A stretch of 64,000 bases of DNA, taken from assembly GCF_001677475.2 (NCBI RefSeq), contig NZ_CP015229.1, one strand, 5' to 3'. The translations under genes were made by a program, and so were the position numbers. Source of the DNA: Escherichia coli. Lineage in GTDB: Bacteria > Pseudomonadota > Gammaproteobacteria > Enterobacterales > Enterobacteriaceae. Below, one piece after another: positions 27,273 through 29,695 of the stretch (its first letter is position 1; each line of letters opens with the position of its first letter). Below the pieces are notes generated by a model. The model was given only the letters and a program-made list of their open reading frames with translations, was not told the origin of the DNA and ran no database searches.

Positions 27273-28247
27273 ATGCAGGCGTTACTTTTAGAACAGCAGG
27301 ACGGCAAAACTCTCGCATCAGTACAGACTCTGGACGAAAGTCGCCTGCCGGAGGGCGATGTCACGGTTGATGTTCACTGGTCGAGCCTGAACTACAAAGA
27401 TGCGCTGGCAATTACCGGTAAGGGAAAAATCATCCGTAATTTTCCGATGATTCCTGGGATCGATTTTGCCGGAACTGTACGCACCAGCGAAGATCCGCGT
27501 TTTCATGCCGGTCAGGAGGTGTTACTCACTGGCTGGGGCGTTGGTGAAAACCACTGGGGGGGGCTGGCGGAACAGGCGCGAGTGAAAGGTGACTGGCTGG
27601 TTGCCATGCCGCAAGGGCTGGACGCACGTCAAGCAATGATTATCGGTACTGCCGGTTTTACCGCCATGCTGTGTGTGATGGCGCTGGAAGATGCCGGTGT
27701 TCGCCCGCAGGATGGGGAGATTGTCGTGACGGGTGCCAGTGGTGGCGTCGGCAGTACCGCCGTGGCGCTGCTGCATAAGTTGGGTTATCAGGTCGTTGCC
27801 GTTTCTGGTCGCGAAAGTACCCATGAATATCTGAAAAGTTTAGGAGCCAGCCGTATTCTCTCTCGCGATGAGTTTACCGAATCCCGTCCTCTGGAAAAAC
27901 AACTCTGGGCTGGGGCAATTGACACCGTTGGCGACAAAGTGCTGGCGAAAGTGCTAGCGCAAATGAATTACGGCGGCTGCGTGGCGGCCTGTGGTCTGGC
28001 GGGTGGTTTTACTCTGCCAACCACGGTCATGCCATTTATTCTGCGTAATGTCCGTTTACAGGGGGTGGATTCAGTGATGACGCCACCAGCACGCCGCGCA
28101 CAAGCCTGGCAGCGACTGGTCGCCGATTTACCGGAATCATTCTATACCCAGGTGGCACAAGAGATATATCTGGCAGAGGCACCGAAGTTTGCCGAGGCCA
28201 TCATTAATAACCAGATCCAGGGTCGCACGCTGGTGAAGGTTAACTAA
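27273..28247 (+). CDS. acuI: Acrylyl-CoA reductase AcuI (YhdH), MDR-family oxidoreductase
   Basis: 324-aa ORF with NADPH-binding GASGGVG. Confidence 0.93.
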   Translation: MQALLLEQQDGKTLASVQTLDESRLPEGDVTVDVHWSSLNYKDALAITGKGKIIRNFPMIPGIDFAGTVRTSEDPRFHAGQEVLLTGWGVGENHWGGLAEQARVKGDWLVAMPQGLDARQAMIIGTAGFTAMLCVMALEDAGVRPQDGEIVVTGASGGVGSTAVALLHKLGYQVVAVSGRESTHEYLKSLGASRILSRDEFTESRPLEKQLWAGAIDTVGDKVLAKVLAQMNYGGCVAACGLAGGFTLPTTVMPFILRNVRLQGVDSVMTPPARRAQAWQRLVADLPESFYTQVAQEIYLAEAPKFAEAIINNQIQGRTLVKVN

Positions 28248-29224
28248 CCATTTAGCAAGGATTAATAAGAGAGGGAACTCATTTTGAAATCATTATTCAA
28301 TCGGTTAACGGGAAAAGCGGTTAGCCGGACAGCTTTCGTCGAACATCTTGGTCATGAAGTTGTACAACATCATCCAAACTGGAAAGTCATGATTTCGACA
28401 GACCATACATTGATGCGCATTGAAACTCCACTAAACAGCCATTATTGATACGCCTCCGTCGCCTGTTAGGTTTATGGTGCTTTGCCTGGGCGACGCTACG
28501 CTTAACCTGTTACTGATTTCTGGTACCATGGGGTGAATAATCTGATTTTATTTGCCTACAAATTAACCACTCGAACGTATTTGATGCTGAGCATTGTCAG
28601 ACGGTTGATTTTGCGTGCTTTAGCATTCACATCTATCCAGACGATGAAGTGAAAATTGCGTAATCCTCAGCAACCGCTGCGTAATGTCGTCTATCTTGTC
28701 GCGATCCTGGCATCCCTACATTATTTGTGGTCTGTGAAGATTATCTCATTGCAGCCCCTCATCTTCGCAGGGCTGGCTTTACAGCTTTTAGCCTTACGTT
28801 ATAAGAAGTTCCGTCGATGATGGCGCTAATTTCGTGAGTTGTGCGGCTTGTTGCAAATTACACGGTGTTGAAGGTTATTTACATGTTAGCTGTTGATTAT
28901 CTTCCCTGATAAGACCAGTATTTAGCTGCCAATTGCTACGAAATCGTTATAATGTGCGACCTCGTTCTCCCTGACGCAGTTTTTGCGCTGCGGAAAAGGT
29001 GACATTGGCGCAACGAAGGTATATTTTGTTTTTTGCCGGAGGATAGCAGCAGATCGCTGCACAATGTCCGTCAAGTCTAACATTGACACTCTGGGGCAAA
29101 ATAGACCGGCGTCCCGGCCTGCTGGAATTTATCGCTATGCATACAGCTGTCGGGGCATACGCTTTACAGACGGCGGTGAAACGCCTGTCACAATCACACT
29201 AAACAAAGAGTACGGAACCCACTC

Positions 29225-29695
29225 ATGGATATTCGTAAGATTAAAAAACTGATCGAGCTGGTTGAAGAATCAGGCATCTCCGAACTGGAAATTTCTGAAG
29301 GCGAAGAGTCAGTACGCATTAGCCGTGCAGCTCCTGCCGCAAGTTTCCCTGTGATGCAACAAGCTTACGCTGCACCAATGATGCAGCAGCCAGCTCAATC
29401 TAACGCAGCCGCTCCGGCGACCGTTCCTTCCATGGAAGCGCCAGCAGCAGCGGAAATCAGTGGTCACATCGTACGTTCCCCGATGGTTGGTACTTTCTAC
29501 CGCACCCCAAGCCCGGACGCAAAAGCGTTCATCGAAGTGGGTCAGAAAGTAAACGTGGGCGATACCCTGTGCATCGTTGAAGCCATGAAAATGATGAACC
29601 AGATCGAAGCGGACAAATCCGGTACCGTGAAAGCAATTCTGGTCGAAAGTGGACAACCGGTAGAATTTGACGAGCCGCTGGTCGTCATCGAGTAA
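29225..29695 (+). CDS. accB: Biotin carboxyl carrier protein of acetyl-CoA carboxylase
   Basis: 156-aa ORF, biotinylation motif EAMKMMN, Ala/Pro-rich linker. Confidence 0.97.

Follow-up and report, generated by a model that had tools for sequence, protein, structure and literature searches.

The genes acuI and accB of Escherichia coli are separated by an unusually long intergenic region, which raises the question of what this region contains and how it arose. In the window, that is, the whole 64,000-nucleotide stretch of contig NZ_CP015229.1 that was analyzed, the spacer measured 977 bp (28248–29224), in line with the gap of approximately 1 kb given in the original prediction, and the gene order was csrD (minus strand), acuI (27273–28247), the spacer, accB (29225–29695), and accC. 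Both flanking genes were intact and on the plus strand: the 324-aa ORF of acuI (yhdH) upstream aligned to K-12 b3253 (yhdH, acrylyl-CoA reductase), and the 156-aa ORF of accB downstream aligned to K-12 b3255. The spacer was found in 5,425 of 5,426 complete E. coli genomes and was closest to that of strain PCN033 (99.3% identity). The acuI/yhdH gene itself was annotated as frameshifted in E. coli strain 16843 (locus L001, 527–1500).

We consider it very probable that the spacer consists of the remains of three lost genes (yrdF, from a gene referred to here as X; yrdE, from msrQ; and aroQ) and has no coding function of its own. Part of this picture is already known. The curated K-12 record places two pseudogenes, yrdF (b4697) and yrdE (b4646), between yhdH/acuI and accB, and both have been termed pseudogenes (PMC7648144; bioRxiv 10.1101/359208), so the pair as such is an ordinary finding. 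A kan cassette inserted just downstream of yrdE (~28861/28862), upstream of the promoter block described below, was reported to be phenotypically silent, growth rate and cell dimensions being no different from those of the wild type within the resolution of that study (10.1101/359208), and the yrdE/yrdF site is already used in laboratories as a neutral place for markers. What the present analysis adds is a proposed origin of the region, in which one deletion of 1.9 kb occurred, the native msrPQ decayed, and the accBC leader was derived from aroQ.

The msrQ and X relics downstream of acuI

In terms of the hydrophobic frames broken by stops, which had been read from the sequence as a decayed membrane-protein gene of unnamed family rather than random DNA, such frames were present at 28656–28820, with neighbors at 28445–28516 and 28533–28652. 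When concatenated, they matched the NCBIfam MsrQ model NF003831 (E = 1.6e-21, profile positions 73–193 of 212), which bears out the reading and supplies the family: a 5'-truncated, frameshifted copy of msrQ (yedZ). This copy, to which K-12 yrdE (b4646) maps, occupies 28427–28820 on the plus strand and corresponds to MsrQ residues ~67–196. Short ORFs are common, with 58 ORFs of ≥20 aa in 3 kb, and one might suppose that the spacer is ordinary non-coding DNA whose ORFs and hydrophobic stretches arose by chance; this supposition is already refuted by the profile match, by the 1,497 MsrQ-family matches that the remnant returned, and by the collinear DNA homology to intact genes, and it retains virtually no probability.

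The yrdE copy is disabled in several ways. Its codon alignment to msrQ of the cryptic-clade Escherichia sp. E4208 (locus L011) revealed a frame change at ~28513–28524, an in-frame TGA at 28653–28655, and a TGG-to-TGA change at 28818–28820, three codons 5' of the ancestral stop TAA (28827–28829), giving at least one frameshift and two stops. At the protein level, 23 of the 92 positions that are invariant in five intact MsrQ proteins had changed. These included H91R and H151R, whereas H164 was kept and H16 and H45 lay in the deleted part; His91, His151, and His164 (E. coli MsrQ numbering) are presumably haem ligands, and the conserved histidines of MsrQ are thus incomplete in yrdE. The remnant scored 76.8 bits against the curated family cut-off of 130 (NF003831), and the adjacent msrP expected of a working system was wholly deleted in the window. 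The yrdE DNA was 78–80% identical to Escherichia msrQ genes and 70.6% identical to Citrobacter msrQ, which fits an Escherichia-lineage gene that has been drifting since its inactivation.

The automatic annotation (PGAP) labels yrdE as a pseudogene of "sulfoxide reductase heme-binding subunit YedZ" or "cytochrome b family protein". Two 196-aa proteins, P0013 and P0136, from metagenome contigs (L008, L009, and L015), were considered as live yrdE orthologues and rejected as assembly chimeras on the basis of sliding-window identity. L015 was 95–100% identical to E. coli hiuH-linked msrQ and then 95–100% identical to yrdE, with the switch in a conserved stretch, and in L008 and L009 a foreign msrQ 5' half was joined to yrdE; the coverage of these contigs was 0.8–1.7x. 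Caution is warranted in annotation, both with such chimeric "intact" MsrQ proteins in the protein databases and with the hypothetical-protein calls made by PGAP on the yrdF ORF.

The 54-codon TTG ORF (FVEHLGHEVVQHHPNWKV) was present at 28284–28448 as predicted. The description of this ORF as His-rich holds for its residues in the window but not as a conserved trait, the orthologue reading HEVLNRYPHWKV. It had been listed as a small ORF separate from the decayed gene; we found that it is the retained start (ribosome-binding site, TTG, and 47–48 codons) of a second destroyed gene, yrdF, and that its GAGGG ribosome-binding site (28271–28275, plus strand, from the sequence reading) lies 8 nt 5' of the TTG, not 5 nt. 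The yrdF pseudogene proper, to which K-12 yrdF (b4697) maps, spans 28284–28426 on the plus strand and comprises the first 47–48 codons of the 276-aa gene X. Its open frame runs on, out of frame, into msrQ sequence for ~7 codons before the stop at 28446–28448. The AGAGAGGGAACTCATT-TTG context was identical in all 14 short-allele strains and also preceded the intact X of E. coli 04A19CPO007 (L002) and Escherichia sp. E4208. Furthermore, the window from 27273 to 28426/7 was collinear with the intact X region, with 97.4% identity to the former and 87.1% to the latter.

Intact X, whose start coincides with that of the 54-codon ORF, was found in 669 of 5,426 complete E. coli genomes (~12%) and in E. 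albertii. In E. coli 04A19CPO007 it lies at 1537–2367 of L002, and the carriers include O111:H8 and O145 strains; in one strain (H31), X was interrupted by IS1A. PGAP names the product a DUF1444 domain-containing protein, and judging from its sequence X is weakly DUF1444-like: none of six X homologues reached E ≤ 0.001 against DUF1444 (PF07285), and a Pfam search with an X alignment brought no gain over the single sequence. X had zero matches in PHROGs and PADLOC, and its AlphaFold model (pLDDT 52) was too poor for fold comparison. A homologue with 63% identity was encoded on a metagenome contig (L004, 3898–4731) amid plasmid/phage-type genes (KfrA_N, Aca2_YdiL, and DUF7352), a context which hints that X is a mobile-element cargo gene. 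X and its flanks (~950 bp) stand in place of ~140 nt of the acuI–msrP spacer of species without X. Because of this replacement and the plasmid/phage-type setting of the one homologue, X is most simply regarded, on grounds of parsimony, as a lineage-specific insertion.

The relationship between the two relics becomes clear when the undeleted array is considered. The search for an intact orthologue by synteny, suggested with the original prediction, succeeded in Escherichia sp. E4208, which keeps the order csrD-acuI-X-msrP-msrQ-accB. Relative to this array, the window lacks 1,935 bp (L011 6145–8079), that is, X codons 49–276, all of msrP, and msrQ codons 1–67. In the blastn alignment, position 28427 corresponded to L011 6144 and position 28431 to L011 8080, placing the deletion junction at 28427–28431; microhomology was looked for at these positions, with no clean match. 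The long allele lacks a different part of the array (~L011 6978–8208). Neither allele derives from the other, because each has private sequence in the blastn comparison (101 bp in the short allele, which is that of the window, vs 856 bp in the long allele), and the two represent different deletions of the E4208-type array. The X carriers (~12% of E. coli) hold a shorter msrQ remnant, a presence/absence polymorphism arising from two independent deletions.

Diversity among the strains was then compared between the relics and their surroundings. Nucleotide diversity in the 14 short-allele strains was 0.031 in yrdF and 0.041 in yrdE, as against 0.0027 from the end of yrdE to the −35 element and 0.0033 in the promoter and leader, making the relics approximately 10 times more polymorphic than their flanks. 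The 54-codon ORF had accumulated 13 nonsynonymous and 5 synonymous variants, a near neutral ratio, whereas pN/pS was 0.22 in intact X and 0.06–0.23 in acuI. The diversity values and variant counts for the relics come from a small sample, 14 short-allele strains. In these strains, constraint on the relics is relaxed, with no sign of it on the 54-codon ORF. Taken together, yrdF and yrdE display syntenic intact homologues, disabling lesions, and relaxed constraint, as pseudogenes do.

Could the 54-codon ORF (28284–28448) nonetheless be a genuine small-protein gene, rescued from the 5' end of X and kept for the function of its peptide? Its frame, TTG, and GAGGG were unchanged in all 14 short-allele strains, its PGAP annotation in some genomes is that of a hypothetical protein (WP_000838301.1 and WP_000838287.1), and it begins 36 nt past acuI, with which it is likely co-transcribed. 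However, an intact ORF in 14 of 14 strains is unremarkable and expected under neutrality, given 18 variants in 162 nt, although the ORF may still be translated. The variants show no purifying selection on the peptide, and diversity was high relative to the flanks. The ORF is also merely the N-terminus of a 276-aa protein followed by out-of-frame msrQ codons, with the full-length gene in its place in ~12% of E. coli. It had no family match in the profile search, it is a curated pseudogene in K-12, and the literature search found no report of its translation. We therefore regard a selected small protein as highly unlikely. On the pseudogene reading, the frame would be open only through its shortness and the retained ribosome-binding site and TTG of X; transcription together with acuI probably continues, and a peptide, if made, would be a by-product.

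msrPQ at the accB and hiuH loci

The genomic context of msrPQ was surveyed by scanning species-representative genomes with a 31-mer from the promoter block (28899–28929), which yielded at least 80 readable loci; the 80 Enterobacteriaceae species loci listed are a set without Salmonella and without K. pneumoniae. Among these, acuI, msrP, and msrQ were located upstream of accB (or aroQ) wherever the locus reached far enough. The order was acuI-msrP-msrQ-accB in Citrobacter and acuI-msrP-msrQ-aroQ-accB in Klebsiella aerogenes and Atlantibacter. X occurred in E. albertii only among the loci listed, its presence in E. coli and E4208 being known from other searches, and acuI-msrP-msrQ-accB without X was found in E. 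whittamii, Escherichia sp. E1V33, and a record labelled E. coli E69. This last record (L069, CP089930.1, "E. coli" strain E69) has intact accB-linked msrPQ, no X, and an acuI 89% identical to that of the window, and is probably another Escherichia species filed as E. coli.

No intact accB-linked msrPQ was found in the complete E. coli genomes. The best msrPQ match of every one of these genomes was instead the hiuH-msrP-msrQ locus (L017, 3473–5113). This hiuH-linked msrPQ shared 86–87% identity with the accB-linked msrPQ found in other Escherichia species (L011, L069, L081, and L105), equal to the divergence of acuI (87–89%). Because its identity equals the acuI divergence of the same genomes, the hiuH msrPQ appears to be an Escherichia-type operon in a new place, suggesting that it moved within the genus while the original decayed; its source may have been intragenomic relocation or transfer.

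The existence of this second, working msrPQ as a possible copy source, together with the X homologue in a plasmid/phage-like context, lends some plausibility to the idea that the msrQ-like and X-like fragments are imported foreign or duplicated DNA, not decayed residents. However, the outgroup Escherichia do have msrPQ at the acuI–accB locus, as do the surveyed loci wherever they reach far enough, and the order of the fragments follows this array collinearly. In addition, the identity of yrdE to the E. coli hiuH msrQ (78%) did not exceed its identity to the accB-linked msrQ found in other Escherichia species (78–80%), and its C-terminus is of the ancestral 199-aa type (...YKKFRRxWR) rather than the 211-aa tail of the hiuH copy. 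An import origin is accordingly hardly credible, and we retain the interpretation of the fragments as decayed residents.

The hiuH-linked MsrQ of E. coli has an extra tail at its C-terminus, SLFNRLRKQV (L017 5063–5113), which resembles the X N-terminus KSLFNRLTGKAV (codons 3–8, SLFNRLTGKAV, L011 6007–6024) in frame, and the likeness begins exactly where the homology to the 199-aa MsrQ ends. A duplication junction between the MsrQ tail and X was considered as the cause and rejected as probably chance, with 13 of 14 nt matching L011, 34 of 500 shuffles performing equally well, and the match not being the best one in E. coli X.

The aroQ relic under the accBC promoter and leader

The original prediction assigned the last ~250 bp of the spacer to the accB leader and promoter, which is only roughly right: the conserved block starts at ~28884, giving ~340 bp, and the prediction did not recognize the accB leader as a further gene relic. 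The last ~340–400 bp before accB aligned with the aroQ region of the genera that keep aroQ. The most upstream part, at 28884–28957 on the plus strand, is the ancestral aroQ–accBC promoter block, near-invariant across four genera, and is now the predicted accBC promoter. A consensus scan placed the −35 element CTGCCA at 28926–28931 and the −10 element TATAAT at 28948–28953 (10 of 12 matches), and it is on this consensus match together with the conservation that the promoter assignment rests. A 31-nt core (28899–28929) was identical in at least 120 genome stretches, across Enterobacteriaceae species. In ~55 of the 80 loci listed, this core was located ~165 nt 5' of an intact aroQ, with accB at approximately +639. 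The aligned 5' UTR of aroQ, including the promoter block, corresponds to ~28884–29063 of the window.

Downstream of the 5' UTR, only the two ends of the gene remain. The 5' end of the relic, the ATG and the first ~7 codons (29064–29084, plus strand), aligned with the aroQ ATG of Klebsiella aerogenes and Atlantibacter, where the 5' UTR is also conserved. The 3' end, the last 15 codons and TAA (29155–29202, plus strand), is out of frame with the relic ATG. Residues 136–150 of Klebsiella AroQ matched this end in tblastn with 86.7% identity (13/15, E = 1.4e-5), and over 29156–29224 the DNA shared 97% identity with the 3' end of aroQ and the spacer in Klebsiella. The former aroQ–accB intercistronic spacer (29203–29224, plus strand, 22 nt), with the accB ribosome-binding region, was almost invariant in a six-sequence alignment and across nine relic-bearing taxa. 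Between the two ends, the fast-evolving middle of the leader (29085–29154, plus strand), the site of the internal aroQ deletion of ~385 bp, had no alignment to intact aroQ. Its identity to E. coli was 54–59% in two Citrobacter and 25–32% in other genera; here E. coli could be aligned with some Citrobacter and with no other taxon, and the piece is too diverged for the aroQ deletions to be counted as one or several. The intact ORF of ~150 aa expected of a type II AroQ (PF01220) is therefore represented in the window by its start region and last 15 codons only.

Intact aroQ, with the same promoter block in front, was present in most Enterobacteriaceae genera surveyed. Among the loci listed, Escherichia, most Citrobacter, the K. 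oxytoca group, K. indica, and Superficieibacter had no aroQ, their accB lying at +313 to +345, and in Phytobacter, Kosakonia sp. S29, and UBA3516 the deletion of aroQ had different endpoints. An aroQ-accB-accC operon has also been described in Aeromonas (PMC10272739), which supports the loss of aroQ rather than its gain. The K-12 record has no feature at the aroQ relic, and the literature search found no mention of it, which is not proof of novelty. A 62-codon uORF starting at the relic ATG (29064–29252) was considered and rejected as a conserved feature, being 9 codons long in Citrobacter and having lost its ATG in several genera; the 62-codon form, which extends 27 nt into accB, is that of E. 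coli, E. albertii, and E4208.

Several further elements were noted in the promoter and leader. The invariant promoter block at 28905–28925 contains GATAAGACCAGTATT, the reverse complement of which, AATACTGGTCTTATC, carries an ACTGGTC half-site; we take this half-site to resemble FadR operators, making it a candidate. A second sigma-70-like site (28999–29027; GTGACA, 17 nt, TATTTT) lies inside the leader, in the cross-genus block GGTGACA...GAAGGTATATTTTGT, and from its sequence might act as an additional promoter or as a regulatory element of some other kind. The Rfam family Ysr190 (RF02764) gave a sub-threshold match at 28928–29027 (25.3 bits vs 66, E = 0.59), overlapping the promoter and early leader, and the Yersinia sRNA Ysr190 might be the homologous aroQ/accB leader transcript. 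FadR has been reported to promote accBC expression, and OmrA overproduction to lower accBC mRNA (preprint 10.64898/2026.06.26.734639), and these reports fit a functional constraint on the accBC promoter and leader. As a tentative proposal, which we hold to be possible though rather doubtful, the long accBC leader may be an exapted aroQ relic, with 28884–29066 and 29155–29224 kept in every relic-bearing lineage as accBC cis-elements (for AccB autoregulation, growth-rate control, and possibly FadR and OmrA) and 29085–29154 as dispensable filler. The delimitation of conserved and seemingly dispensable parts offers a deletion map for studies of accBC autoregulation.

Order of events and comparison with known systems

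These results can be assembled into a reconstruction that accounts for the unusual length of the acuI–accB intergenic region. The ancestral Enterobacteriaceae order would have been acuI-msrP-msrQ-aroQ-accB-accC. The middle of aroQ would have been lost, with the promoter, the 5' UTR, the last 15 codons, and the intercistronic spacer left in place, presumably because these pieces drive and initiate accBC expression. X would have entered the acuI–msrP interval in part of Escherichia, and a single 1,935-bp deletion in the line leading to most E. coli would have joined the start of X (yrdF) to the tail of msrQ (yrdE), the latter having undergone neutral drift since. The loss of msrPQ at accB probably cost nothing, because a working msrPQ is present at the hiuH locus. 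The native accB-linked msrPQ of E. coli would thus have decayed while a second, Escherichia-type copy at hiuH took over.

When the window is compared with K-12 MG1655, yrdF (b4697) and yrdE (b4646) have the same boundaries, at 28284–28426 (95.1% identity) and 28427–28820 (94.9% identity), respectively, with no essential difference, the window being another strain's allele. Whereas the K-12 record gives no product or origin for either, their parent genes and the deletion that generated them are identified here. With regard to X, it aligned over almost the whole of its own length to both models of the DUF1444/UPF0354 family (PF07285; NF010189, PRK13668), but its scores were marginal (Pfam E = 0.01; NCBIfam 22.3 bits vs a cut-off of 221), and the window keeps just 47–48 codons of it. 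In the case of MsrQ/YedZ, the haem-binding membrane subunit of the MsrPQ periplasmic methionine sulfoxide reductase (NF003831, PF01794), the yrdE translation was 60–67% identical to intact enterobacterial MsrQ over the residues it covers (~67–196); it differs from a working subunit in lacking the first 66 residues and an msrP partner, in being frameshifted with two stops, and in the loss of two invariant histidines. Finally, compared with the aroQ-accB-accC operon of Klebsiella aerogenes, Atlantibacter, Enterobacter, and others, in which aroQ encodes a type II 3-dehydroquinase (PF01220), the window keeps the promoter block, 5' UTR, start position, last 15 codons, stop, and spacer. In contrast to the intact operon, ~385 of the 453 bp of aroQ are gone and the remaining ends are out of frame with each other, so that the region is now only the accBC promoter and a leader of ~265 nt.
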